DNA of 64,000 nucleotides from a virus. Each line of letters begins with the position of its first letter. Within the stretch, counting starts at the first letter, position 1. The notes beneath the pieces were generated by a model that saw only the letters and a program-made list of their open reading frames with translations, had not been told where the DNA came from and did no database searches. A program made the position numbers and the translations under genes. Location: positions 7,926-71,925 of IMG/VR virus record IMGVR_UViG_3300037515_000251; one strand, written 5' to 3'. This document shows, piece after piece, positions 11,801 to 46,466 of this stretch.

Positions 11801-12270
11801 CTATCGAAACAACTCCATCTTCGGCGGGATCGCCCGCCGTAAATCGCCCGCATTGTCCAGCTTCCAGAACAGCGCCCCGTCCCGCCGGCAACGCTCGGCG
11901 AAATCCTTCTGTTCCGGCCGCAACTTCTCGCCCGGCCTCTTCGTCTCGATCCAGCCGATCCGCGCATGGGAGCACGTCTCGATCTCGCCGGTCAAGAAAT
12001 TACGCACTGGCCGGTTGGCCGGAATCATCAGCAGCACGTCGGCGGTGCCCTTGGGGGCGCCCTGGCCCCAACGGGTGCGCTTCTTGTCGTCCCCGTCTTT
12101 CTCATCGTCCCCGCCGGGGAACTTAAACAGCCCACAGACGATGTTCGCCCGCCAGATTCCTTCCCATTCCAAGTAGTCGAGCACCGCTTTCTTGAAATCG
12201 CCCTCAAGAGCTTTCGGCGCCCGCCATGGACGGCTGCCCCAGCGGGGCTTGCGGTTGGGGTTAGCGGCCA
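11801..12270 (-). CDS. VRR-NUC domain nuclease (PD-(D/E)xK fold)
   Basis: GTADVLLMIPANRPV…ETKRPGEKLRPEQKDF…GALFWKLDNAGDL matches VRR-NUC pattern (G-x-PD…E-hyd-K…Q); start taken at MAANPNRKPRW just after HNH stop. Confidence 0.55.
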
Positions 12271-12629
12271 TGCTGCTTCCCATGGCAAGGCTGGCAGCGC
12301 CCCTCGATATTGGCAACCCGATCATCCCGCCCATGACTGCGGAACCTCTTGTGATGGGCCTGCAACGGCTTCATTTCACCGCACCGCGCGCAACGCCAGC
12401 CCTGCTGCTCGAACACGAGCTCGGCATTGCGCTTCAGGTTCCAGTCCACGAACTCCTGCGCCATATCTTTCATCTGCTGCGGCGAAGTGCGCTTCGTGCA
12501 GCGCTTCTTGGTGAGTTCCTTCACCACATCGCCAGCATCGTCCAGGGCAGTCAGCGTGAGGCTATCCGGCGGCTGGAAGATGATCGCTATCTCGTATCCG
12601 GTGATCTGGCTGGCGTGGGAGAGAGTCAT
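12261..12629 (-). CDS. HNH endonuclease
   Basis: CxxC…AHHKRFRSHGRDD…N…CQPCH zinc-finger/HNH motif; palindromic motif 8 nt upstream of ATG. Confidence 0.65.
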   Translation of the reverse strand: MTLSHASQITGYEIAIIFQPPDSLTLTALDDAGDVVKELTKKRCTKRTSPQQMKDMAQEFVDWNLKRNAELVFEQQGWRCARCGEMKPLQAHHKRFRSHGRDDRVANIEGRCQPCHGKQHGR

Positions 12630-12636
12630 GGATTCC

Positions 12637-12651
12637 GTGTCAGTTTGACAC
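12637..12651. repeat. genome-wide palindrome copy (GTGTCAGTTTGACAC)
   Basis: 8 nt upstream of HNH ATG (minus strand). Confidence 0.9.
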
Positions 12652-13844
12652 TAGGTTTCGACGGCCGGCGCGTATTCCTGTTCGGTCATCCCCCAACTCG
12701 CGGCCAATGCCGCGCGCGCCGTGCGGTGTTGTGGATTCGCCCATAGAACGGTCGTCTTTCCGGTAGTGTGGCAAGTGACCGATAACAGGCCCCATCCCAC
12801 GTTGCCGCCAAGATCAAGGGTGTAGAGTTCCGCGAGATGCGCGGCATTCTGGTCGATCAACTTTAGGCGCTTCGAAGACAACAGCTTTCCCTTGCCGTAA
12901 CGCTCGATCATCACCCGCCGCACTTCCGCGTTCGGTTCGGCGAAGATGGCATCCTCGGTGATTGTTTCCGGCCTCTCGATCACGTCTTGCGGCACGCGAA
13001 CTCCGTGCCACGCCCAGATATTCCAGCCGTCGTTGAATTTCATTGCTGGCCCGGTCTCGCAATGCAGGCGGTTGATGCTGCGGTCATCAACCTCCGTATG
13101 GACTTCCGGCCGGGCGGACACAAAACACATATTCTCGAAGAAATAAACCCAGCCGCAAGAACGGCAGAGATCGGCCATGATGCAGAGCCTTGTGGACATC
13201 TCGGGTTCATAGCGGACGCCCAAGTGTTCGCAAAATTTGTAAAAGCACACCCAAAAGGAATCGTGCTGGCCCAAAAAATACGTGTCCCGAAGGCTGGCCC
13301 CAAGGCTGTCCCGAAGGCTGTCCCCAAGGTTGTCCCGAAGGTTGTCCCCAAGGCTGTCCAGAAGGCTGGCCCCAAGGCTGTCCCAAAGGCTGTCCCGAAG
13401 GCTGGCCCCAAGGCTGGCCCCAAGGCTGTCCCGAAGGCTGTCCCCAAGGCTGTCCAGAAGGCTGGCCCCAAGGCTGTCCAGAAGGCTGTCCCCAAGGCTG
13501 GCCCGAAGGCTGTCCCCAAGGCTGTCCCCAAGGCTGGCCCCAAGGCTGTCCCCAAGGCTGGCCCGAAGGCTGGCCCCAAGGCTGTCCCAAAGGCTGTCCC
13601 GAAGGCTGGCCCCTCGGATCGCCGCAATGCCAATCTGGCACGTCAGCGGAGAATCGCACCATACGATTACCGGTGGACCCTTTCCGATGGCGCGATAGGC
13701 CCGATTGATCGCGTCCCTGGCGAGAATTTGATCGCACGGGCCAGCCGCCATCCCAATTCGCAGCCACTCGTCGCGCCATTTGGGAATACTTGCTTCCTGC
13801 TCTGGCGTGAGGGCTTCAATCCGCAACGCTTTTAATGACGGCAT
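12651..13844 (-). CDS. tetrapeptide-repeat protein ((S-L-[GRWL]-[DA])n, ~30 copies) with unique N- and C-terminal domains
   Basis: 397-aa ORF; central ~356 nt is a 12-nt tandem DNA repeat (ggctgtccccaa-type) encoding SLGD/SLRA/SLWD units; overlapping plus-strand and other-frame ORFs are frame artefacts of the repeat. Confidence 0.55.
   Translation of the reverse strand: MPSLKALRIEALTPEQEASIPKWRDEWLRIGMAAGPCDQILARDAINRAYRAIGKGPPVIVWCDSPLTCQIGIAAIRGASLRDSLWDSLGASLRASLGDSLGASLGDSLGDSLRASLGDSLLDSLGASLLDSLGDSLRDSLGASLGASLRDSLWDSLGASLLDSLGDNLRDNLGDSLRDSLGASLRDTYFLGQHDSFWVCFYKFCEHLGVRYEPEMSTRLCIMADLCRSCGWVYFFENMCFVSARPEVHTEVDDRSINRLHCETGPAMKFNDGWNIWAWHGVRVPQDVIERPETITEDAIFAEPNAEVRRVMIERYGKGKLLSSKRLKLIDQNAAHLAELYTLDLGGNVGWGLLSVTCHTTGKTTVLWANPQHRTARAALAASWGMTEQEYAPAVET
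13265..13620. repeat. 12-nt tandem repeat array (~30 units) inside CDS 12651-13844
   Basis: ggctg(g/t)cccc(a/g)aa units repeated head-to-tail; period 12 = 4 codons. Confidence 0.8.
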
Positions 13845-16574: not shown

Positions 16575-17288
16575 CTAATTCCCGATTAAGTGCTGCCGCC
16601 GCGCCTCATCGACTTCGTTGAGGATCGCGCCTTTCATGCAGTCCACCTTGTTGTCGTGGCCGTCGCCGGAGAGTAGCGCGAGTTCGTCCGATTCCAGCAG
16701 GTCGGCGAACGCCTCCGCCGCGTCGGCACTCAGTTTCTTGGCGAACTCCGCGATCCTCTGGACGTGCGGGGCGGCTCCATTCTCGAGAACCCACACCCGC
16801 ACGCAAACCGGGATGTTCGCCCCGGCCGCTACGGCTAGTTGGTGGGTCGGCATGGTCTTCGCCTTCTCGATCAGGTCGGGCTTGATGTGGCCGTTGATCT
16901 GCTCGTGCCGGGCGAGAAAATTCCCATTCGAGACGCTGATCTCGCCGCGATCTTCGGGCGAGAGTTGCTGAAGCGCCTTGCTCGACGCCAGGAACATCGC
17001 CCGCCCGGCGGTGCCCTCGCTGATCCCGAAGTGAGCCAGCCCGGACTTGCGGAACTCGGTCCAGGTCTTGCAGCCGAGTCCCTCGTAGAGTCCGCGGTCC
17101 TGAATCAGCAGCAGCAGGTTGCCGAGCGCGACCCGCATGTTGATCTCGGCGGCCTGAAGGAACTTGTCGGCCTGGCCGAACGCAGTCAGGTAGTCGCGCG
17201 TGGCGGCGGCGTCGAGTTCGGGGATGTTCGCCGCATCCTGCCAGTGGCGGATGACATCGAGCGGTTGGGATTCGGTGAGTTCGGTCAT
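16575..17288 (-). CDS. hypothetical protein
   Basis: ORF 16575-17363, likely start MTELTESQ at ~17288. Confidence 0.4.
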   Translation of the reverse strand: MTELTESQPLDVIRHWQDAANIPELDAAATRDYLTAFGQADKFLQAAEINMRVALGNLLLLIQDRGLYEGLGCKTWTEFRKSGLAHFGISEGTAGRAMFLASSKALQQLSPEDRGEISVSNGNFLARHEQINGHIKPDLIEKAKTMPTHQLAVAAGANIPVCVRVWVLENGAAPHVQRIAEFAKKLSADAAEAFADLLESDELALLSGDGHDNKVDCMKGAILNEVDEARRQHLIGN

Positions 17289-18400
17289 TGGGGTAGTTGG
17301 TTGTGCTCCACGCCGTCGAGCAGGCGGCCGGCGGCGTGCTTGCCGACGCGCTCCATGAACCACGAATGGTCGTCTGGACGATAGATGTCTCCGCTATCTA
17401 CTTGTCCTGTTGGCGAGACACGCACCGTGCGATCCGGTTGAGCCTCAAAGAGAACTGATGGCGTAATGTTGTCCGTGAAAGAATCGGCGCAACCTACTGG
17501 CTGAAACTCGCCCCACTGTTTGAAAAAATGGGCCGTGCCAGCCACCTTGCACTGATCCCTGATACTTCTAAACCAGTCGGGATGCGCGGGCCGTGCGCCG
17601 GGGCCTGACTCGCCGCCGGAGATGATCCAGTCGAGGCGCGGCGGTAGAGCTTCGACGCAGAGATGATGATCCCCATGAGTTGCCGCATCCCTGGTGCCGT
17701 AGCCACACTTGGGGCAATAAAGGAATGCGCTGAAGTCCACCGGCCCCAAAGCTGGCTCGTAGCTCACGAACCGCACGGCAGCCGAGGTCTTCAGCAGCCA
17801 CGGGATACGCTCATCGGCGTACTTCTGGTTCTCGGCGGAAACGCCGAGCCAGACGTTCGGAAGGGGCCAGCCACCGGGAACCATGCCGTCCCGTTGCGTA
17901 GGAAGGATGGCCCCATAATGTGGTGATCCCAATAGCTGTTGTGCGGCTACGTTCAGATCGTGAAAGCGCTCTGCACCGTTTACCCCAGACGCCCATTTGT
18001 ACATCCGCTCCGCCCGCTTGGTCAGCACCATGTGGCGATGCTGCGGGGTGAGCGCCATCACGGCGAAACACTGGTCGATCCACTCGTCGGGCACGAGCGA
18101 CCAGAACATGTCCGTCATCGAGCACCAGAAGTACGCCGTGGGCTTGCGGCGGCGAAGCACCTGCTGAAGCACGGCTTGGTCAAGGTAAATCTCGATTTCC
18201 CCGTTCGTGTACTTCTCCGGGGCTTCGTCGAAACTGGGTAGCCCAAAGCGGTGCTGTTCGCGAGAGCTATAGCAGAACACGCAGCCCGGAGAAACCTTCG
18301 CGCAGGCATGGCCGGAGCGTTTGCCGTGCCTGCGGTCGGCCCATCGCGCCCGGATTGGGTTGATCGTGAACTGGGTCCACTCGATGCTTGATTTAGCCAT
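17285..18400 (-). CDS. DUF5131 / phage Gp37-Gp68 family protein
   Basis: N-terminus MAKSSIEWTQFTINP…SPGCVFCY resembles the conserved IEWT…NP…C..C start of the Gp37/Gp68 family. Confidence 0.5.
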   Translation of the reverse strand: MAKSSIEWTQFTINPIRARWADRRHGKRSGHACAKVSPGCVFCYSSREQHRFGLPSFDEAPEKYTNGEIEIYLDQAVLQQVLRRRKPTAYFWCSMTDMFWSLVPDEWIDQCFAVMALTPQHRHMVLTKRAERMYKWASGVNGAERFHDLNVAAQQLLGSPHYGAILPTQRDGMVPGGWPLPNVWLGVSAENQKYADERIPWLLKTSAAVRFVSYEPALGPVDFSAFLYCPKCGYGTRDAATHGDHHLCVEALPPRLDWIISGGESGPGARPAHPDWFRSIRDQCKVAGTAHFFKQWGEFQPVGCADSFTDNITPSVLFEAQPDRTVRVSPTGQVDSGDIYRPDDHSWFMERVGKHAAGRLLDGVEHNQLPQ

Positions 18401-19026: not shown

Positions 19027-19508
19027 TGGACAAGAGCCATGTACTCACGCACCCTGCCAGTCTCCACGTTGCGCTGGTGGAACTTCTTCGGCTCGCGCCC
19101 CAGTCCGTCGCAGAACTCGCAGTTCTCGGCCTCCCGGCGTAGCACGGCGAGCCGCGTCATGTCGCTTGCCGACCAAGCCTTTTCATCGGCAGCGGTGCGG
19201 ATGTCGAACTCGGTTGGGGTCCACTCCCCGGACGTGGCGAAGTGCTCGACGCAGGCTGCGATTGCCTCGGCATTGGTGCAGTAGCGTAGCACGGCATCGA
19301 TCAGCGTCTTGCGGATGGCGGGATCAGTGGGCCAGTTCTTGAGAGTAGCCCAACGGGTAATCCCATTGATCGCTTCCTGTTCGGCGGGACTGAGTTTGCG
19401 CTTCTCAGGCGCCGAGGCTTTGGATGTACTCGGCGATCCCGTCCGTCTTGCTTGGTTTGGCTTGGCGGCGCTGCTGTTCAGTAGTGAAGAAACACTCGAT
19501 AATGGCAT
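18972..19508 (-). CDS. hypothetical protein
   Basis: 178-aa ORF with CxxC…CxC cluster. Confidence 0.3.
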   Translation of the reverse strand: MPLSSVSSLLNSSAAKPNQARRTGSPSTSKASAPEKRKLSPAEQEAINGITRWATLKNWPTDPAIRKTLIDAVLRYCTNAEAIAACVEHFATSGEWTPTEFDIRTAADEKAWSASDMTRLAVLRREAENCEFCDGLGREPKKFHQRNVETGRVREYMALVHCRCPYGQLRAKVEGQGA

Positions 19509-20510
19509 CGGCTGAAACTCCTTTCATGTGATCGGCGGCATGTTTTTCGAACGTCCCAATCAACCTCGTCTCGAAACCTGGCTTGTCTTGCAGGTACATC
19601 GCTTCGAGCAGCGCGATCTTCCAGGCTGGCAGGTGAAGATCAACCCACTGCACAACACCGTTTCCGGGCGGCAATGCGCGTAAACGGCAGGCATTCACCA
19701 CCGAGATGATGACCCCGGCTTGCGGGCGCGGATCCAGCTTCGTGTCAGTTTGGCACCGATTGGGCCGGGAGAACGCCTCGGATGGCTGGCGCGATCTGGT
19801 AACCCCGCCATTCGGCCGACGCGGACGCCCTGGGACCCCGACCAGGGCCAGCACGTCGTCGGTCACATTCCCGCCGTCCCCGGAGCGCTCGTCGAGTAGC
19901 GCCGCGATCCGCTCCCGCAACTCCGGCGAATCAGCCTCGGTGAGCAGCCGCCGCTTCGACCCCGTGGTGATCCGTAGCGACAGCCCCAGGCTCCGCGCTT
20001 CGTCCGCCGCCCACTTGTCGATGGGGCGCTCCATTTCCGCGGAGTTCTGTTTTGGTAAGGGGGTAGGGGGATTATCTCTTTCTTTAGTATTTTCTTTAAG
20101 AGAAGAATCTATAAGGACGGGATCGGGGTTGACCGTCGCATGGGTGCGACTGTCACCGTCGCATGGGTGCGACTGTCGAGCGGAATCGACCGTCGCATGG
20201 GTGCGACTGTCGAACAGGATCGAGTAGCTGACTGGGAAGCCTCCGCCGTTCGGACTTTTGGCGATCAAGCCGCGCTCAATGAGTGAGTTTACTGCTCGGT
20301 GAAAGGTGGCGACGTTGATCTGCGACCACCCACAAATCGTGTCCCTGTCAACCGTGACGACTTGACGCTGGAACCCGATCGTGAGCCGGTAGATCGACAG
20401 GTAGACCTTCATCTCCGAGGACGATAAATCGCCCATGATCTGCTCGATGAAGTCGTGATTGAGTTGGCTGAAGTTGCCTGAAGGCGGCCGGTTCGGCCTG
20501 GATTTCATGG
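19405..20510 (-). CDS. replication-initiator-like protein (winged-helix N-terminus) with origin-like iterons inside its coding sequence
   Basis: probable start MKSRPNRPP at ~20510 (GAGG upstream); N-terminal MKVYLSIYRLTIGFQ…INVATFHRAVNSLIERGLI helix-turn-helix-like; ORF reads through palindromic motif at 19742 without a stop, so 3' boundary uncertain. Confidence 0.4.
19742..19756. repeat. genome-wide palindrome copy (GTGTCAGTTTGGCAC)
   Basis: inside/at 3' end of initiator-like ORF. Confidence 0.9.
20132..20211. repeat. three 23-bp direct repeats (accgtcgcatgggtgcgactgtc; iteron-like) next to an AT-rich patch (20075-20115): candidate origin of replication
   Basis: copies at 20132-20154, 20155-20177, 20189-20211; flanking ttatctctttctttagtattttctttaagagaagaatctataagg is strongly AT-rich for this genome. 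Confidence 0.6.
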
Positions 20511-20745
20511 CGTGCCTCGCTTTACGGAAGTGTTCTGTCGCCGGTACCCGCGGCAGACAGAGAACAGTGTACGCCAAGACGAGCGAGAACCGCAAGCCTA
20601 AAAGGGTGCGGCCCGGACTTGTGGGTACGCCGGGCCGCTGCGAACTTCCAGTAAAGGAGGTTGTTTTTGTCGGTTTGTGTCCTGAGTATAGCACGGCAGT
20701 CAAGGAAAAGTCCCGGCCCGGAGGAGAGACGGGCCGGGCACCGCA

Positions 20746-22629
20746 TCAGGCGGCGGGAGATACCGCTTTCACCGCCCCATCGGACAAAAAGAAAACCTTG
20801 GCCCCGTGGTTCAGCCAGCCATCGGGAACGTCAGCGACCACGCACTCGATCACCTGATGCCCGCTGGCCTGCAATTGGCACGAGATGTCGTAACGGAACG
20901 CATCCGTCATCGGCGCCAGATCGTCCACGGCCACGATGCCCACGCCGGTCACGGTCGCCACGGCAACCTTGAACGCGGCCTCGAACATCATTGCCTTCTG
21001 GCCGTCAGAGAGCAAGTCGGCTCCCCGGCCCGTGCAGACGAATCCGCCATCGAAGGTATACTCGACACCCTCAATCCCGAACGGCTCCAGGAACCCAGCC
21101 ATGATGCCCAGGAATTGCTCCAGCCGCCCGCCGACCATGGACTTGCGGAGTGCGAGCAGGTCGTCTACGATCTTGCGTTCCCGGTCGATTGCGGCGGCTT
21201 TGGCGGCCACGTTGTCGCGCCACTTGCGAACCGCTTCCGCCTTGGCTTGCCACTCCCGGTATCCCTCGACGGCCGTGGTGTGGGTGTCGCGCAACTGCTG
21301 GCACTTCTCGATGTCGGAGCTGATCTTGTCGCGCCGCGCGCGGGCTTCGTCCAGCGAGTTGCGGGCAGTGTCGGCTTCGGTGTGGATCGCGGCCAGCCGG
21401 TTGGCTTCGGTGTTCAGTTCACGCAGCTCACCGGACTTCAGTTCGAGGGTTTGCCGGGCCTTGATGGCAACCGCAAGGGATTCTTGGTGCTTGGCCGTCT
21501 TGAGGGCGAGGCTGTTTCGGTCAGTGGTGATCTCATCGCACTCGGATGTGAGTTGCGCCTGCTGTGATTCCAAGCCCAATATCTCGGTATCGGCCTGCTC
21601 AACGAGACGTTCGATGAGCGGACAAGCATCGGCTGGACACTTAATCTTCGGCCGCTCGGAGAGCTCGGCCATGCGCTGACAGATGGAGCGCAAGAGAGCC
21701 TGCTTGGCTTCGTATTTACCGCCAGATTCGCCGAGTAGGTTCATCCCGGTTTGGATTGCCCCGGAAATCTTTGCCTCCGTCTCCCGCGCAGCCTTCAGGT
21801 TCTCGGCGTTCTCGATGATCGCCTTCGTCAACGCCTCGGATTGTTCCGCCGTGGGCCGCGGCCCCGCCTGCTCCGCGCGCCGAATCCGTTCCTCGAACAT
21901 GCCGATGGCGGACGATACGGTTTGCAGTTCCTTGGTCAACGCGACGAACTTGGCATTTAGGCCGTCGAGCAGCTTCAGCCTCGCGTCAAGGTTCACGCCC
22001 TCCGGCTCTTCGCCAGGCTCTTCGGGCGGATGATCGTCGAGAGACTTGGCCTCGCGGTTGAGATCGCGCAGCGTGACCTCTTTGTGGTCCTTCAGCAGCG
22101 ATTCGATGTGCTCGATACCGGAGATCGTCGGAATTCCGGCGTCCAGCAGCGATTGCGGCACGGTGATCTTCGCCGGCCGCAGCACCCGCAGCAGCGCCGC
22201 CCGCTGGTCCTCGATGGGGCGCTCCAGCACGGGGATCGGGTCGAACATCGCCCAGATCGTTTCCGCTGGCAGTTGCAGAGCGTCGAGCAGGCGGGTCTCG
22301 TTGTCGCTCACCTTGTCGCCATCGGCCCATGAGAGCGTGAGCTTGTGCTTCTTGGCGCTCCGCGTGCGCTGGACGGTGCCGTGGGGGTCGAGCGTGAGGC
22401 TGATGGACGATTCGGCGGCGCCGGTGCGGATCAGGCGCTCGAATCCGCGGCCCCGCTTGTCGGTGAGATGGCAGGTTCCGGTGAGGGCGAGCGAGATGGC
22501 CCGCAGTACCGTGGACTTGCCGGAGCCGTTCGTCCCGACGATCAGATTGTGGCCGGGCGAGAACGCGAAGGTGACATCGGCGTGAGGGCCGATGTTCTGA
22601 ATGGTTAGGCGGGTGATTCTGAGTGGCAT
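20746..22629 (-). CDS. SbcC/Rad50-like SMC ATPase
   Basis: Walker A GTNGSGKST, long coiled-coil, CPADACP zinc-hook-like, signature LSDGQKAMM, Walker B IVAVDDL. Confidence 0.7.
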   Translation of the reverse strand: MPLRITRLTIQNIGPHADVTFAFSPGHNLIVGTNGSGKSTVLRAISLALTGTCHLTDKRGRGFERLIRTGAAESSISLTLDPHGTVQRTRSAKKHKLTLSWADGDKVSDNETRLLDALQLPAETIWAMFDPIPVLERPIEDQRAALLRVLRPAKITVPQSLLDAGIPTISGIEHIESLLKDHKEVTLRDLNREAKSLDDHPPEEPGEEPEGVNLDARLKLLDGLNAKFVALTKELQTVSSAIGMFEERIRRAEQAGPRPTAEQSEALTKAIIENAENLKAARETEAKISGAIQTGMNLLGESGGKYEAKQALLRSICQRMAELSERPKIKCPADACPLIERLVEQADTEILGLESQQAQLTSECDEITTDRNSLALKTAKHQESLAVAIKARQTLELKSGELRELNTEANRLAAIHTEADTARNSLDEARARRDKISSDIEKCQQLRDTHTTAVEGYREWQAKAEAVRKWRDNVAAKAAAIDRERKIVDDLLALRKSMVGGRLEQFLGIMAGFLEPFGIEGVEYTFDGGFVCTGRGADLLSDGQKAMMFEAAFKVAVATVTGVGIVAVDDLAPMTDAFRYDISCQLQASGHQVIECVVADVPDGWLNHGAKVFFLSDGAVKAVSPAA

Positions 22630-24000: not shown

Positions 24001-24015
24001 GTGTCAAACTGACAC
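24001..24015. repeat. genome-wide palindrome copy
   Basis: 19 nt upstream of minus-strand ATG at 23982. Confidence 0.9.
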
Positions 24016-25050
24016 GGGAAAACGTTTCATCGCGATGAGGTCCATTAGCAGTTCCTCGGCTACCTCGCGGCTCGGCTCCAGCGGCAGCATAGAACGGTCC
24101 CGAGCGGCCTTCGCCTCCGCGAACAATTCCTCGGCGCATTCTTTCACTGTCTCGATGGACCACTCCCCGCGCTTGATGGCGAGAAGTTCATCGGCATCCC
24201 GCTCGCGGTAGACGTTGAGCGTGCCCGAGTCGAGAAACTCCCGGCACATCCTCAGCAGCCGAATGCAATGAGCGGCGTGCTTGGTGTCGTATCCGCGCTC
24301 CAGGATCAGGCGCTTGCGCTTCTCACCCAGGTAGCCGAGATTCGAGTTCTTGGAATGAAACGCCTTCAACTTATCGCGGAGATGCTGATCTTCGTGGAAC
24401 GCGAAAATGGTGGTTTCCTCAACCGGGAACTTCTCGCCGCGATGCTGCGGATGAATCCCGCGTTGCTTCATCTCGGCAACGAGTTCAAGGTAGTCCTGCA
24501 ATGTCGCCCGGTCGAGGCATTCCATCCGTTCCAACTGCCCCGCCGCGTATCCGGCGAACGGCTTGTAGACATGGCGACCGATGAACAGCGCGCGATTCGC
24601 TATGAGCAAATTGCTGAGTGGGGAAGCGACAATCCGGTGTTCGGGCCTTGTCCACAGTGAGCTCATGATGTTGGGATTCCCGGCCAGCAGCAGCGAGAAA
24701 GCCTTGCGGAGTTCGTAGAACAACAGGTCGAACTTGCCCTGCTTGGTTTCCTTGGTGCCGCGAGAACCCCATTCGGTGAGGCCGATGTAGTGCGCTTTCG
24801 GGGCCACGGCAAACCCGATCACGTCCACGTCGTCCACCGAATGCGGATCGCTCTCGGGCAGATACATGCCGTGCGCCACTGAGCCTCGAAAGGCCGCGAA
24901 GATCACATCGTCCGGCAGGATTGCGCTGAACCCGTCCATGTGTGGGATAAACGCTCGGGTGCTGGCCCCGAGTCCAGGACTCGAACCTGGATTCTCCGGT
25001 CCACAGCCGGGTGTCTTAACCTGTTGAGACGAACTCGGGATTTCATTCAT
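24004..25050 (-). CDS. pol-beta superfamily nucleotidyltransferase (GS-x9-DxD) with helical C-terminal domain
   Basis: FRGSVAHGMYLPESDPHSVDDVDVIGF minimal NTase motif; palindromic motif + GGAGA SD 11 nt upstream of ATG at 25050. Confidence 0.55.
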   Translation of the reverse strand: MNEIPSSSQQVKTPGCGPENPGSSPGLGASTRAFIPHMDGFSAILPDDVIFAAFRGSVAHGMYLPESDPHSVDDVDVIGFAVAPKAHYIGLTEWGSRGTKETKQGKFDLLFYELRKAFSLLLAGNPNIMSSLWTRPEHRIVASPLSNLLIANRALFIGRHVYKPFAGYAAGQLERMECLDRATLQDYLELVAEMKQRGIHPQHRGEKFPVEETTIFAFHEDQHLRDKLKAFHSKNSNLGYLGEKRKRLILERGYDTKHAAHCIRLLRMCREFLDSGTLNVYRERDADELLAIKRGEWSIETVKECAEELFAEAKAARDRSMLPLEPSREVAEELLMDLIAMKRFPVSV

Positions 25051-25078: not shown

Positions 25079-26305
25079 CTAAAACGGCGGTTCCTCTTCA
25101 AACTCTTCCGGCGGCTCGTCCCCCGGCTCCCGGCCCAGGAACCGCTCCGTCTCGGCTACCGGGTCCATGGCGTCCACGAACTCATCGGCGCTCTCGGCTT
25201 TCCCGCCCTGCGTGGCGACCGCCTTGCTCGCCGCGCCGTAGTCGTCGGGGTTGACGCCTTGGACGACATCGACCCAAGGATTAGCGGCCCGGACATGATC
25301 GGGGATTGGGGCGGAGTTGGCCTGCGGCGCCGGCGCGGGAGCCTGCGGCTTCGTGGCGGGCTGAGCGGGTGGCTCTGGTTCTGGTTCCGGCTTTGGAGCG
25401 CCCGCCATCTTGCGGGCCGTGGACTTCGCCTTGGCCGCGTCCCGGTTTTTCTTGTAGACTTCCAGCCACGGGTCCAGAATCTCGTTCACGGCTTTCTTTC
25501 GGCCCGCTTCGTCGAGTGAATCCCACTTGGCCGACAACTCGGCGATGTGTTTATTGGCGACCGCCTGCTCCACGTTGACCTTGTGGGAGGCGTCCCGAAT
25601 AGACTGCATGATCTCGGCGGGCACATTCGATTCCGGGGCGGTGAGCACCGCCGTCGCCATGCGCTGCTGGAGGACTTCGGGCGGCGCATCGTTGTCCATC
25701 TGGTGCAACTCTTCGGCGATGTAGAGGCCGCGCAGGTTGCGCGGGAATGCGCGGCGCAATCCGCCTGCTTCAGCGCATTTGGCGATCTGTCCCTCCGGCA
25801 TTGTGTTCCAGAGACCGGCAGGTTCGCGCCGGTTCGTCTGCCTATTGAAATACGATTGGCAATAACTCGAAAATTTAACGGTATGAACCAGTGGTTCGGT
25901 GAACCCGTGACGCAGGATTTCAATTTTGGCGGCGGCGGGAGCCTCGTCTTGAAGCCACACGTCTTTCCAGACGCCATCTTTGCCGCACCAGAACGGCCCG
26001 CGCTGGCCCGCGTACTGGCCCGTGCTTTCGGCCTGTGTGCGTAGGCCGTCAATGCCAACTTGGATTGTCGGAACATCCCGCTGCTCCTTGGCGCTGAACC
26101 GTTTGACAAGATGGATTTCCCGCCGGAAGGGATCGAACCCAGTGGCCTTGCAGACCGCCAGGAAATAGTCCAGTTCTTCATCGGTCGCACCCTTGGCGAT
26201 GGTGTCCTTGATGACCTGAACCTGCTTCGGGGTAAAGCTGAGTTCGACTGGCTTGGATACGGCTTGCGGCTGGATCACCGCGACTGCTTTCGTTTCTTTG
26301 CTCAT
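25079..26305 (-). CDS. recT: RecT-family single-strand annealing recombinase
   Basis: FLAVCKATGFDPFRREIHLV…IQVGIDGLRTQAESTGQYAG core typical of RecT/Bet; acidic proline-rich C-terminal tail. Confidence 0.65.
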   Translation of the reverse strand: MSKETKAVAVIQPQAVSKPVELSFTPKQVQVIKDTIAKGATDEELDYFLAVCKATGFDPFRREIHLVKRFSAKEQRDVPTIQVGIDGLRTQAESTGQYAGQRGPFWCGKDGVWKDVWLQDEAPAAAKIEILRHGFTEPLVHTVKFSSYCQSYFNRQTNRREPAGLWNTMPEGQIAKCAEAGGLRRAFPRNLRGLYIAEELHQMDNDAPPEVLQQRMATAVLTAPESNVPAEIMQSIRDASHKVNVEQAVANKHIAELSAKWDSLDEAGRKKAVNEILDPWLEVYKKNRDAAKAKSTARKMAGAPKPEPEPEPPAQPATKPQAPAPAPQANSAPIPDHVRAANPWVDVVQGVNPDDYGAASKAVATQGGKAESADEFVDAMDPVAETERFLGREPGDEPPEEFEEEPPF

Positions 26306-26747: not shown

Positions 26748-27584
26748 CTAAACCTCGATCAATCTGGTAGCGACATCCTGGCTCGACACGATCACCGCGT
26801 CGAGCCGCTTGCGGCGCCGGGCGTTCGCCTCGGCCATGATGCGCCGCACGAGCTCGGGGTCGTTGTTCTCGCCCGACAGGTGCAGGGCCACGACCGTATG
26901 CGCCGTTTCCGGCAAACTCTGGATCGCCAGCGCCGCTTGGTCGTTGTTGACATGCGTTGACCACGTCCGCTGATTCACCGTCTCGGGCCTGTCTGGGTTC
27001 TCCAAGCACGCCGTCTGATCGTGGTTCATCTCGATTCCGTACACCTGCGCCCCGAGGCCCGCCTTCCACATTTCGGCCGTGATCTTGCCAGTCTCGTTCC
27101 AGATCGCTATCTTGCGGCCGGAGTAATTCTTCAGGCAGAACGTCATCGCGCCTTCGGAGTTGTGCTCGCAGGCCAGCCCGATGCCCGTGAACAGCTTGGC
27201 ATGGTCCCGGCTGAGTGCAAATGGCTTACCGAACTCGACGGCGCGCGCATCGCCGGGGAACGGTTTCTTCTCGCCGAGCTTGTCGCGCATTGTCTTGAGC
27301 GTGGCCGCGTGGGCGTAGACGATTGCGCTGGGACAGTGTTTCCAGAACGGCAGCAGCGATTGCCAGTGATCGCCGTGGGCGTGCGAGATGAGGATCGCCT
27401 TCACATCGGCCGGGGCCATCTTGAACTGTTTGAGGTCGGCGGCGATGTTTGCCGCGGCGAGGCCGCAGTCGATCAGCACGGCCCAGGGCAGCGGCCAAGG
27501 CTGGTTGTTGGCGGCGAGCGGAGCAGGCTCCCAGATCAGGATGGCGTTGCCCTTGGAGCCGGAGCCGAGTACGCAGAGGTTCAT
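26748..27584 (-). CDS. metallo-beta-lactamase-fold hydrolase
   Basis: VLGSGSKGNA…ILISHAHGDHWQSL (HxHxDH motif). Confidence 0.6.
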   Translation of the reverse strand: MNLCVLGSGSKGNAILIWEPAPLAANNQPWPLPWAVLIDCGLAAANIAADLKQFKMAPADVKAILISHAHGDHWQSLLPFWKHCPSAIVYAHAATLKTMRDKLGEKKPFPGDARAVEFGKPFALSRDHAKLFTGIGLACEHNSEGAMTFCLKNYSGRKIAIWNETGKITAEMWKAGLGAQVYGIEMNHDQTACLENPDRPETVNQRTWSTHVNNDQAALAIQSLPETAHTVVALHLSGENNDPELVRRIMAEANARRRKRLDAVIVSSQDVATRLIEV

Positions 27585-34750: not shown

Positions 34751-35026
34751 TTAAAAGTGGATGTCCTGCTTCGGATAGGTGAATCCGATTGCCTTGCGGA
34801 CCTTGGCGGCCTGCTTGTTCTGATGCTTCACGGCCGCCGCGTGTCCATCATCTCCGCAGCCGTCGCCGGAACGCCTCATCAGATAGGCGGCCATGCGGAC
34901 GGCCCGCACTGCGATTGCGTCAAGCTCTTGCGCCGTCTCGTCCAATTCAGACGCCTTGCGGCGTTTGCAATAGGCGTCAAGGTCGGCAAGCGCCTTTGTG
35001 TTCAGCAGGGTAAAAGCCTTTTTCAT
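34751..35026 (-). CDS. hypothetical protein
   Basis: 91-aa ORF, motif at 34723 immediately downstream. Confidence 0.35.
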   Translation of the reverse strand: MKKAFTLLNTKALADLDAYCKRRKASELDETAQELDAIAVRAVRMAAYLMRRSGDGCGDDGHAAAVKHQNKQAAKVRKAIGFTYPKQDIHF

Positions 35027-35854
35027 GCTGCAACCTCCATGTCCGCCGGTTCCCCGGTCAGTCCGTCGATGATCCGCGTCGCGGCCCGATAGATCGCGCT
35101 CAGCGAGTCGCTGAGGGCTTTCGGGTCGCCAGCCATGTGGATGTAATCGGCGCTATTCGCCCCGCACTCCACGCCGGCCGCCGCGCAAACCGCCGCAGCC
35201 ACAGCCTGAGCCTCAGTTTCCTTTAGCGCCGCGGTCATCTCCCGGCGCCGCTCCAGCGGGTGTAATAGCTCATGGCCGAGCTCATGCGCCAGCACGTCAA
35301 ACTCGTAAGCAGGCTCAAGGCCCGGTTTGATGGTGATGCGCCCGCCGGCGGACGTTCCGAGTGTGCCCGAGACGTGCTGATAAACGATCTCGATTCCCTG
35401 AGCCACGGTCCACGCCTTGAGCCGTTCCAGCAGTTCGCCGGGTTCCCCTTGGGGCTTGGCGATCTGGGGTAGTGGTTCGCCTTCGGTTTGGGTCACGTCG
35501 AACACGTAGACGCCGCGAAAGAACGTCACCCGCTCCGGTTCGCCTTGCTCGGGTTCGCCCGTTTCCCCGTCCGATTCGCCCTTGACCTTGCAGAGCATCG
35601 GGGCGAGAATGAGAATACCGTGCTCGCCCTTGCGGACGTGGCGGCCAAGCTGCAACCAGGTCCGAAAACCCGCCACGTTCGTAGCGCCCGGACATTGCAT
35701 GGCAATCATCATGCAATTGCGCCACGAGTAGCGCCTGAAACGGCGCATCGTTTCGAGATAGGCCGTGAGCCGTTCAGACTTGCCGGCCGCAAGGTCCGCG
35801 CTCAGCTCCCGGAGAGCTTGCGCGGCACGTTCTTTGGCATCGGCGGGGGTCATC
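35023..35854 (-). CDS. ArdC-like antirestriction protein (N-terminal ssDNA-binding domain + C-terminal HExxH zinc metallopeptidase)
   Basis: N-terminal ERLTAYLETMRRFRRYSWRN…AGFRTW pattern; C-terminal LAHELGHELLH; start taken at MTPADAKERAAQ. Confidence 0.55.
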
Positions 35855-36367
35855 GGGTCACCTTCCGGCTTCCGGTGACGGCGCACGAACCGAGGCGGTT
35901 CCCGTTGATATCGTGGATACTCCAATTGTCGGAAGGCGTCAGATGATTCAAACGATCTTCGTCCAGAGTTGCGAGTTGCGTTGCAACGTTGCGCAATACT
36001 CTGGCGATATCCTCGCCGGTTCGCATCGCATCGATTTCGATCTCAAGTGTGAATTTCATGGTCGGTATCTCCAGGGGAAACGTCCCCGCAAGGGGAACGG
36101 ACGGCGCCCGCCCGCTCCCTATGCGCGAAGGTCTCAGTTTTGGGCGCCAGCCAAAGCCACAACCGCCCGTGCCAATCGGCGAACCTCCGCCGCGCGATCG
36201 TCCACCACGGCAACCAGTGGCTTCAGGTCTGTTTCGCCCGCGTGCCAAGCATCGCGCCAACGCATGACGGCAGAGCACAACGCGGATTGTGCGCGATCAA
36301 GATCAAACCGCGAACAGGCTAACTCGAATTTTGTATCTGATTGATTCAGCATGGTTTACTCAGTTTC

Positions 36368-36879: not shown

Positions 36880-37700
36880 TATGCTCGCCAGTCATAATGC
36901 AATACTAGCATTGCATTTCGGGGCTAGTCAAGCGGATTATGATAATTATTGGCGATTCGGCGAAGATTTTACAATTAGTACACTCGTGTTGACAGTAGAG
37001 TGTCAGAAAAATCTGACAGGTGTCAGAAAAATCTGACAGTTTGGGGATTACGACTGTAAGGATTTATGACAGTCGGAGGTCTTTCCCTTGGGGTGTGAGA
37101 CACTCGTTAGACACTTTATGGCGCAAAGTGTCTCATGTGAGACAGTCTATTGCTCGGCCCTCCGAATCAGCACTATCGGCGCCGCCGGCAGCAGTGATGG
37201 CAGGCCCGCCGCAGCGTCAGGACCGCACCAGGTCGAATCGCTGGCAGGGTTGATAATGTCGTATAACATGTATTGTGTAAACTTCTGAAATCGAAACTAA
37301 CTACTGTGCTGTCATACAGATACAGCGATATGCCGGAATTATGGAACACCCAGGAAAATAGGCAACCACAACATGTTGTGGTCAGTGCTACTGGTGGAGT
37401 GCTGCTGGTCGAGCGGTCGAGCGCGTGGCCGGAGCTGGTGGAAGTGGACGAGTCGCGGCCCGTGCGGTGGGTGTGGTGGCCAGGCTCGGTCGGTGGCGCG
37501 GCTGGCAGTGGTGGACCTCGTGCGCGACCCCCATGCCCCCTTTTCACAGGAATGGGTTCCCATCTGCCCGTGGTATCACGATTCTCCGTCCACATACATC
37601 CCGATTCCTGCGACCATGGTACACGAGTTGTATTTTCAACGACTTACGGGAGGCAAAAACATGGTGCGATTATGGTACGGGTTTATGCGATAATGGTAGA
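36880..37700. promoter_or_regulatory. low-GC divergent control region between minus-strand early block and plus-strand regulator block; contains TTGACA box and several operator-like palindromes
   Basis: AATGCAAT-N6-ATTGCATT (36886-36907); TTGACA (36999-37004); tandem TGTCAGA-AAAA-TCTGACA at 37011-37028 and 37031-37048; GTGAGACAC … GTGTCTCA … TGAGACAG inverted set (37095-37145); no convincing ORF across 36900-37690. Confidence 0.6.
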
Positions 37701-38113
37701 AGTATGGATGAATTTAGCCAAGAATCGTTGACGCCGTTCCAGGAGATCGCGATGTGGAGACATAAGGGGAAGGATGGGCGGCTAATGAGCCGGGAGAGGC
37801 GGTCGGCGGTGATGCGGGAGTTGGGGAAGCTGAGGCGGGGGCGTGGAGGGCGGGAGGCGACGGTGTTGCACGCGCCTGGGCCGAGAGGGGGGTGTCGGTG
37901 TGCGGAGTGCCGGCGGGGAGGTGGGTCGGCGGACAGGGGGAAGGGGAAAGAGCATGCCCCTGGGAGCGCCGGGCAGGCGCAGAAGCCGGTTTCGGTGGAG
38001 TTCGAGCGGGCGGCGGAGGGGGAATGGGAGTGAAGCCGCTGGCGCGGTACATCGCGAGGGCGTTTCGGCCGGGTTGACAGGGACGGGCCGGTTATGCAAC
38101 ACTGCTGTTGACA

Positions 38114-38784
38114 TGGCGGATGGTGCCAGACTGACACGGCGGGACGGGCGGATCGTGGAGATGCGGGCCGGGGGGATGACCTTGGCGGCGATTGGGCTTG
38201 AGTTTGGGGTAACGCGGCAGCGGGTGCGGCAGATAATCGAGAAGGCGTGCAGGGGCCGGCTGTGCGTGCGGTGCCGGCTGCCGGATGGGCGGCTGGACGG
38301 GGACGGGCTGTGCGGGAAGTGCGTGCGGCTGCTGGAGATCGTGGCGGACGATTCGCTGGCTTGCGAGGAAGCAGGCCAGAAGGCGGGTGTTTCTGGTGCG
38401 GTTGTTCAGCAGACTCGCCGGAAGTTCGGGATTCGGCATCAGTACCGGAAGCATTTCAGGGACGGTGTGCCGGAGGATGTATTCGATCCGCGGGCGAGCG
38501 CGTTGGCGCTGACACGCAAATACGGAGTTGGCAAGGGCGTTATTCAACACTTGCGAAAGAAGGCTGGGCTGGCTGGCCTACAGCGGAAGAAGCTGTTCCC
38601 ACAAAAAAGCTGGACGACTGACGAAGATCGTGTGCTTGTGGAGATGCGCCGGGCTGGCAAGACCTGGGCGGAGATTGGGGAGAGCCTGGGGCGGTCGCCT
38701 CAGGCGTGCCGGACAAGGCAGATCAACCAGCGGCGGAAGGGGATCGAAATGGGCGCGTGGCCGGAGGTCGCGGCGCCGTGCTGA
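38114..38784 (+). CDS. multi-HTH transcriptional regulator (sigma-r4-like HTH + SANT/Myb-like C-terminal repeat)
   Basis: LAAIGLEFGVTRQRVRQI HTH; C-terminal WTTDEDRVLVEMRRAGKTWAEIGESLGRSPQACRTRQ Myb-like; variant of the genome-wide palindrome (GTGCCAGACTGACAC) overlaps codons 4-8. Confidence 0.45.
38123..38137. repeat. variant palindrome copy (GTGCCAGACTGACAC)
   Basis: overlaps start of regulator gene 38114. Confidence 0.7.
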
Positions 38785-38848: not shown

Positions 38849-39613
38849 ATGAAAGAGCACCCCATGATTTGTGCCGACGCCGAAATGCGGGCCTTCCTGG
38901 ATGGCCGAAAGACTCAGCACCGGCAGATCATCTCCGCCAAGAACTCCACGGTGAACGGGGAAATCCCGAATACCAGCCGCTCGGCGAAGGAGTTCACGGA
39001 CGGCTGGCGCGATCTCGATTTTGAGGGAACCGGCGGACTACGCCCTTACGCCGATGGACACCAGAGCGAATGCCCGTGCGGATCGTACTTGCATGTGCCG
39101 TTGGCCGGTTACGGCGTGGATGGCGATCATCGAGTCTTCAGGGTACGCTCGCGGGTTGAACCCGGCGACTTGATCTGGTGCCGGGAGAACGGATGGGAAC
39201 GCCCATTTAGGACCGCCACGGACATGCGGGAAGGTGCCGACACATGGGAGAAATTCTACTACGATGCGGACGGTTTAACTGAATCTGATCGGGACGATTT
39301 CAAGCGCTGGCGATTCAAGCGACGCCACTCCACCCAGATGCCCAAGTGGGCTTCGCGCTGCCGTCTCCGCGTGCTCAGCGTGCGCCCAGAACGCGTCCAG
39401 GACATCAGCGAAGAGGATGCACGGGCGGAAGGTATCAGGATGTTCGACAACTCCGGCATGTATGCCGGTAGAAGGGGGCCGGGACGCAAGGTAACGCCCT
39501 GGTGGACGGCCCGCGAAGCATTCACCGATCTATGGGACACCCGCCACGGCAGTGGCGCATGGCTGCGTAACGACTGGGTTTGGCTCTACGAGTTCGAGAA
39601 GGTGGAACCATGA
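38849..39613 (+). CDS. hypothetical protein (possible ASCH/PUA-like N-terminus)
   Basis: start MKEHPMICADAEMRAFLDGRKTQ; weak resemblance only. Confidence 0.3.
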   Translation: MKEHPMICADAEMRAFLDGRKTQHRQIISAKNSTVNGEIPNTSRSAKEFTDGWRDLDFEGTGGLRPYADGHQSECPCGSYLHVPLAGYGVDGDHRVFRVRSRVEPGDLIWCRENGWERPFRTATDMREGADTWEKFYYDADGLTESDRDDFKRWRFKRRHSTQMPKWASRCRLRVLSVRPERVQDISEEDARAEGIRMFDNSGMYAGRRGPGRKVTPWWTAREAFTDLWDTRHGSGAWLRNDWVWLYEFEKVEP

Positions 39614-46385: not shown

Positions 46386-46466
46386 CGGGGCGTAGCTCAG
46401 TCAGGCCGAAGGAGCGCTCGGTTTGGGACCGAGAGGCCGCTGGTTCAAATCCAGCCGCCCCGACCA
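46386..46466 (+). tRNA. tRNA, anticodon UGG (Pro) predicted, genomically encoded CCA, unusually long D-loop
   Basis: CGGGGCG-UA-GCUC-(13-nt loop)-GAGC-G-CUCGG-UUUGGGA-CCGAG-AGGCC-GCUGG-UUCAAAU-CCAGC-CGCCCCG-A-CCA; 7/7 acceptor pairs. Confidence 0.65.

Follow-up and report, generated by a model that had tools for sequence, protein, structure and literature searches.

In theta plasmids of the Rep_3/RepA type (pPS10, F and R6K) a winged-helix initiator binds direct repeats (iterons) of ~22 bp beside an AT-rich unwinding element, and these iterons are phased by helical turns. In phage SPP1 the repeats of oriL that are bound by the initiator likewise adjoin an AT-rich region. This origin is embedded in gene 38, which encodes the initiator G38P (PMC5737612). 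In phage lambda the origin, ori-lambda, combines four 18/19-bp iterons with an AT-rich tract of 38 bp, situated midway along gene O (PMC3349717, PMC7466680). Dimers of O on neighbouring iterons form the O-some (PMC3985674), and two iterons, along with the AT-rich tract, are enough for unwinding (Dodson 1986, as cited in PMC7466680).

Here we analysed a 64-kb stretch of DNA (the window hereafter, referring to the whole of the 64,000 nucleotides), which derives from a phage that, unlike lambda, is uncultivated and has a GC content of 61%. Three palindromic iterons and an adjoining AT-rich tract, both inside an O-like initiator gene, very probably form the theta-type, lambda-type replication origin of this phage, as judged from the sequence comparisons described below. 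Such a layout is already well known and in that sense ordinary; what is new is a lambda-type origin in the O-like gene of an uncultivated, GC-rich phage.

The candidate origin resembles ori-lambda in several respects. Both are found mid initiator gene, directly past the N-terminal winged helix and at an aligned position. Both the window and ori-lambda and its counterparts in lambdoid and Stx phages have dyad-symmetric iterons of 18-23 bp, spaced by approximately two helical turns. An AT-rich tract of ~40 bp with a purine-rich sense strand comes next in the gene direction (in lambda, AAAGAAAAAAGAAAAGATTATT). In both systems the origin segment encodes a linker, and iteron specificity goes with the N-terminal domain. 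An earlier note on this DNA had proposed a lambda O/ori-lambda-like arrangement, a proposal that is supported by the aligned position, by the succession of iterons and AT-rich tract and by the retention of this layout in relatives.

There are also clear differences. The window has three iterons, in contrast to four or six in lambda and lambdoid phages. Its iteron is rich in GC and has CCCA/TGGG (4 bp) at the centre, where lambda has an A-tract instead, and its spacing is unlike that of lambda in that two copies abut and the third stands at 34 bp. In lambda a 28-bp palindrome follows the AT-rich tract; in the window this place is taken by a conserved C-run. Rep_3/RepA plasmids differ more strongly, as their iterons are found beyond the borders of rep, whose promoter contains inverted half-repeats that serve autoregulation. 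By contrast, the window iterons are intragenic, with none near the promoter and none elsewhere in the 64 kb, and the window protein matches Phage_rep_O and not Rep_3, which argues against a Rep_3-type iteron origin. SPP1 oriL shares with the window the position of a phage origin inside the initiator gene, a likeness in layout. However, genes for a phage helicase and its loader (G40P and G39P) stand beside the initiator in SPP1, and neither was found in the window.

The initiator gene, its product and its upstream region

The O-like replication initiator gene is located on the minus strand at 20508..19405, with an ATG at 20508 and a TGA at 19405-19407, and encodes a protein of 367 amino acids. 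The N-terminal domain matched PHROG 678 ('replication initiation O-like') with an E-value of 1.8e-12. With the Pfam family Phage_rep_O (PF04492) the window protein scored 22.5 bits, under the cut-off of 28.7. When a profile of the window protein and two relatives was compared with lambda O using hhalign (E 7e-5), residues 11-105 aligned with residues 27-121 of O. In both genes this alignment stops where the iterons start, at codon 100 here and at codon 117 in lambda. An exhaustive profile search recovered 2129 relatives, nearly all via the N-terminal domain, and among the best 148 of these 2129 a Phage_rep_O match was present in 139. On the basis of these homologies we assign the N-terminal domain to the phage replication protein O family, in agreement with the earlier description of the product as a winged-helix initiator-like protein. 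An antisense plus-strand ORF at 19706-20227 was discarded as a high-GC artefact; the minus-strand ORF has homologues and family matches.

In an AlphaFold model, residues ~18-97 are predicted to fold as a winged helix and residues 160-367 as a helical C-terminal domain, with a disordered segment between them (100-159, pLDDT <50). Since the origin-like DNA coincides with the disordered segment, it would encode a linker between the two folded domains. Foldseek and PDB sequence searches returned generic winged-helix regulators only, with weak E-values. These matches support the predicted winged-helix fold, not the family.

For the C-terminal domain there was no Pfam or PHROG match and, by hhalign, no similarity to lambda O. 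The O-family C-terminal domain that binds a P-type helicase loader therefore has no recognizable counterpart in the window protein and, unlike in lambda, no P-like loader gene follows. As C-terminal domains vary within the O family, this limits the statement that the protein works exactly like lambda O, and not its membership of the family. None of the early genes was recognized as encoding a helicase, a helicase loader (P or DnaC/DnaB-like), a primase or a polymerase.

The region upstream of the gene (20529..20640, minus strand) is conserved in the two full-length relatives described below, where it corresponds to 6690-6800 of L001 and 9865-9985 of L005. It contains a terminator-like hairpin at 20638-20608 (GCGGCCCGG...CCGGGCCGC) that displays compensatory changes across the three loci. 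This is followed by a promoter-like TTGCGG-18 nt-TACACT at 20595-20566, conserved in all three loci, and by a leader hairpin at 20566-20529. A consensus promoter scan called no promoter at 20529-20640; we infer that the TTGCGG-18-TACACT element is one. Transcription from this putative promoter would cross the origin ~360 nt downstream, likewise to lambda, where pR transcription passes through the origin, and might contribute to origin activation.

Iterons and AT-rich tract

The sequence ACCGTCGCATGGGTGCGACTGTC occurs in three exact 23-bp copies, at 20132-20154, 20155-20177 and 20189-20211. The first two abut and an 11-bp spacer precedes the third, exactly as the earlier note had reported, and the chance expectation from 100 shuffles was 0 matches. 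The second and third of these copies are alike across the 11-bp spacers too, forming 34-bp units of 91% identity. Each copy contains a 16-bp palindromic core, GTCGCA-N4-TGCGAC, which confers dyad symmetry. Searching the whole 64 kb revealed no further copies of ACCGTCGCATGGGTGCGACTGTC with up to three mismatches, no GTCGCA-N4-TGCGAC beyond the three iterons, and no fourth or degenerate iteron or iteron near the initiator promoter. As in lambda-type origins, direct repeats with internal dyad symmetry are thus found within the initiator gene, past the DNA-binding domain.

Numbered in the gene direction, iteron 1 (20189..20211, core 20192-20207) is the most distant from the AT-rich tract and encodes DSRTHATV. 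Iteron 2 (20155..20177) begins 34 bp from iteron 1, start to start, and is read in a different frame, giving RQSHPCDG. Iteron 3 (20132..20154) abuts iteron 2 with a period of 23 bp, is nearest to the AT-rich tract and again encodes DSRTHATV. Copies offset by 23 bp necessarily fall into different reading frames. What is kept exactly is the DNA repeat, whereas the peptide repeat is broken (DSRTHATV, RQSHPCDG, DSRTHATV). Selection on this segment accordingly acts on DNA and not on protein.

The AT-rich tract at 20071..20115 is the candidate DNA-unwinding element. It is separated from the nearest iteron by 17 bp and lies downstream of it in the gene direction, as in a lambda-type origin. The tract encodes LKENTKERD, and its sense strand is purine-rich (AAAGAAAATACTAAAGAAAGAGATAA). 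Its GC content is 0.22, compared with 0.61 for the window, and it represents both the lowest-GC 30-bp and the lowest-GC 45-bp stretch of the 64 kb. In duplex stability, the 41-bp minimum of the 64 kb also falls on this tract, with a nearest-neighbour ΔG of -42.4 kcal/mol. Given a mean of -62.0 and a standard deviation of 4.0 kcal/mol over the 64 kb, this makes it a 4.9-sd outlier.

The earlier note had described a strongly AT-rich tract of 40 bp inside the gene. Its location and composition were correct, but the sequence quoted there spans 45 bp (20073-20117). It had also placed the iterons after the tract. Tract and iterons do adjoin; since the gene is on the minus strand, however, the iterons come first and the AT-rich tract second in the gene direction, the same order as in ori-lambda.

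On its other side the tract is bounded by the C-run CCCCCTACCCCC (sense strand, 20059..20070), which encodes PPTP and is kept in all three loci for which DNA was obtained. Junction motif GATCCCGTCCTTATAGA, AT-rich tract and C-run together make up a block of 74 bp (20053..20126). An exact scan of viral, metagenome and genome contigs with the 27-nt core of the AT-rich tract gave no match.

Three contigs from three JGI samples (L002, L003 and L004) correspond to window positions 20222-19013, 20148-19097 and 20191-19250, respectively. They are near-identical to the window, two at 100% and one at 99.9%. All of them end inside the iteron array, which probably reflects an assembly break at the repeats, and the gene caller reported only the C-terminal 209 amino acids, starting MERPIDKW.

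Related loci and the O family

Only two full-length relatives with DNA were present in the collections searched, L001 (ENA, 8.2 kb) and L005 (Logan, a 53-kb contig). Word-indexed protein searches yielded two full-length relatives and one fragment. There was no match by tblastn against 50,697 phage records, and none of the related-locus pattern matches in viral and metagenome contigs was confirmed by tblastn. L001 and L005 belong to syntenic phages with ~70% DNA identity that have the upstream SMC-like ATPase, KTSC and RecT genes in common, and their initiators are 37% identical to that of the window.

Both relatives carry iterons at the same place in the gene, with a spacing of 23 + 22 bp. The repeat is TAGCTCAAAATGAGCTACCCCC in L001 and GGTAGGTCAAAATGACCTACC in L005, three times each, with a diverged middle copy in L005. 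These iterons are palindromic as well, but unrelated to the window iteron, and each iteron type is restricted to its own locus. The relatives' iterons (TAGCTCAAAATGAGCTA) resemble the lambda iterons (TCCCTCAAAACGAGGGA) in form. Neighbouring iterons of L001 are also read in different frames, as AQNELPP and LKMSYP.

The divergence of the iterons parallels that of the N-terminal domains. Between L001 and L005 these domains are 62% identical, and the iterons differ by one symmetric base change per half-site (AGCTCA versus AGGTCA). The N-terminal domain of the window is 34-37% identical to those of L001 and L005, and its iteron is unrelated. A fourth lineage available as protein only (P0004) has a different N-terminal domain, with the repeat SVHPQNGE / PFTHRTE / SVHPQNGE followed by VLIDDIKGNTKETDNPQTPLE. 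In this small sample of three DNA loci and one protein-only lineage, iteron sequence thus appears to follow the N-terminal domain; as few relatives were found, the link is drawn from three to four lineages.

A different pattern was seen for the C-terminal domains, where the window is nearer to each relative than L001 is to L005, indicating that the gene is a mosaic. The first 70 C-terminal residues of the window and L001 are 64% identical, compared with only 34% for the N-terminal domains. The 74-bp block is 100% identical in DNA between the two. At positions encoding the same residue in the window and L001, 24/24 codons are identical inside the block, in contrast to 53/113 (47%) outside it (P ~1e-8). 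The succession of GATCCCGTCCTTATAGA, an A-rich tract and CCCCCTACCCCC is common to the window, L001 and L005. In L005 the junction and the C-run are retained and the tract has diverged, although it is still A-rich.

We then extended the comparison to the best 148 of the 2129 relatives. Exact repeated 5-mers within 40 residues were present in 61 of the 148, compared with 1.0 expected from shuffling. In most of these 61 proteins the repeats are found directly past the winged helix. The distances between them cluster at 11, 15 and 22 amino acids, equivalent to 33, 45 and 66 nt, which are multiples of approximately one helical turn. TK[ED] followed by a K/E/N-rich stretch occurs in 32 of the 61 and starts at a median of one residue past the last copy; at the corresponding point lambda O reads TKDTITKEKRKD. 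Given this recurrence of the same layout among O-like relatives, the arrangement in the window is the usual one for the O family.

Alternative explanations, proposed mechanism and neighbouring features

Origin function is not the only role that can be envisaged for these elements. The repeats could be sites at which the initiator or another protein exerts regulation (autorepression, copy control or exclusion of related phages), with initiation taking place elsewhere. Iterons of lambda placed on plasmids do also act in replication silencing (PMC3349717). The window has a single other candidate origin, an AT-rich intergenic region between divergent genes (36.9-37.3 kb). This region holds several of the next-lowest-GC stretches and, at 37000-37039, two exact tandem 20-bp palindromic units (2 x GTGTCAGAAAAATCTGACAG). 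No initiator gene is located next to these repeats, however, and they directly follow a TTGACA between divergent transcription units, a typical operator position, which suggests that they are operators of the early/late switch. Moreover, the iterons at 20 kb border on the one stretch of the genome with the lowest duplex stability, no iteron copy is found near the initiator promoter, and iterons followed by an A-rich tract recur throughout the O family. We consequently regard a purely regulatory role as very unlikely. An even smaller probability is given to the 74-bp block being mainly a recombination junction for swapping modules of N-terminal domain plus iterons, with its identity to L001 reflecting recent exchange. 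This would fit the mosaic gene (100% identity in the block, 64% in the first 70 C-terminal residues and 34% in the N-terminal domains, relative to L001), the diverged tract of L005, and the lambda record NC_001416 (L006), in which two recombination junctions are annotated just past the AT-rich tract, at 39157-39166. Such a junction is compatible with origin function, though, and while it accounts for the identity, it leaves unexplained the iterons, the extreme instability of the tract and the layout seen across the family.

Two further explanations were weighed for the repeats themselves. If their dyad symmetry served to form hairpins in mRNA or single-stranded DNA (for pausing, processing or priming) rather than dimer sites, one would expect the strand to fold accordingly, and it does fold into three hairpins (z = -7.6 versus shuffles). 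Pairing is also kept between L001 and L005, as both half-sites have changed (AGCTCA/TGAGCT versus AGGTCA/TGACCT). A symmetric change is, however, equally expected for a dimer on two half-sites. The copies within a locus are in addition identical in the loop and the non-palindromic flanks, which a protein needs and a hairpin does not, and the repeat sequence follows the DNA-binding domain. In lambda, O dimers bind iterons of the same dyad form (PMC3985674). Loop and flank identity and the match to the DNA-binding domain therefore favour recognition by protein, and hairpin function is rated lower again than the recombination junction. The least probable explanation is that repeats and AT-rich tract are a feature of the protein only, a repetitive low-complexity linker without a role at the DNA level. 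The segment does encode a disordered linker, and such linkers tolerate repeats and odd composition. Yet an offset of 23 bp shifts the frame between copies, with the result that the peptide repeat is lost where the DNA repeat is exact, and all three copies are 100% identical in DNA. The codon identity to L001 (24/24 in the block versus 47% elsewhere) and the 4.9-sd outlier in duplex stability likewise speak against it. On the grounds of reading frame and codon identity we reject the protein-repeat reading.

For the preferred reading, a lambda-type origin, we propose the following mechanism. Dimers of the O-like protein would bind the three palindromic iterons through the N-terminal winged helix. 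Two iterons suffice in lambda, so three should be enough here. The resulting nucleoprotein complex would destabilize the adjacent 45-bp AT-rich tract, predicted to be the easiest site of the genome to melt. The C-terminal domain would then recruit the replicative helicase, probably that of the host, either directly or via a small phage protein that escaped recognition. Helicase recruitment is the weakest step of this mechanism, as no helicase, loader, primase or polymerase gene was recognized nearby to support what follows unwinding. GC skew, a check proposed by the earlier note, lends no support to this reading: there is no inflection at 20 kb, and the only turn, at ~36 kb, falls where transcription direction and coding strand switch.

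A more far-reaching reading, which we hold only tentatively and consider rather unlikely, is that the segment of junction, A-rich tract and C-run constitutes a portable sequence-specific module, or that the host helicase is loaded via the new C-terminal domain without a P-type loader. As a module, the segment could be recognized as single-stranded DNA by the initiator or the host helicase machinery, and it could also be the crossover point for swapping domain-plus-iteron modules. In favour of a module are the 100% identity between phages whose initiators are 37% identical, and the purine-strand signature (TK[ED] and a K/E/N-rich stretch) past the iterons in many O-like initiators.

Returning to the lambda-type origin, its assignment provides an uncultivated 61% GC phage lineage, which has almost no database relatives, with a probable origin and initiator. 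This is useful for annotation and for plasmid or vector design for the host of the phage. The three loci also amount to a natural swap experiment, in which iterons and matching DNA-binding domains vary beside an identical or similar unwinding element, and which could serve the study of initiator specificity. Our understanding of how such origins work is unchanged.

A number of other features were noted in the window. The early block on the minus strand extends over 10.9-36 kb. It includes genes for a VRR-NUC-like nuclease (11801-12334), a DUF5131 protein (17285-18400), an SMC-like ATPase (20746-22629), RecT (25079-26305), a metallo-beta-lactamase-fold protein (26748-27584) and an ArdC-like anti-restriction protein (35023-35925). 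At 13283-13613, within a DUF6745 gene (12651-13844, minus strand), there are 27.6 tandem copies of the 12-bp unit TGTCCCCAAGGC, which give a four-residue protein repeat. GAGACAC/GTGTCTC palindromes are found at 37094-37147, near the tandem repeats of the divergent intergenic region. The first large gene of the plus-strand block (37843-38784) encodes two sigma-70 region-4/Myb-like helix-turn-helix motifs, and its product may be a phage transcription regulator or a small-terminase-like protein. Two tRNA genes were detected, tRNA-Pro(TGG) at 46386-46466 (plus strand) and tRNA-His(GTG) at 24963-25039 (minus strand). The latter overlaps the first 29 codons of an ORF for an RlaP-like nucleotidyltransferase (24004-25050), which suggests that this gene probably starts further downstream.
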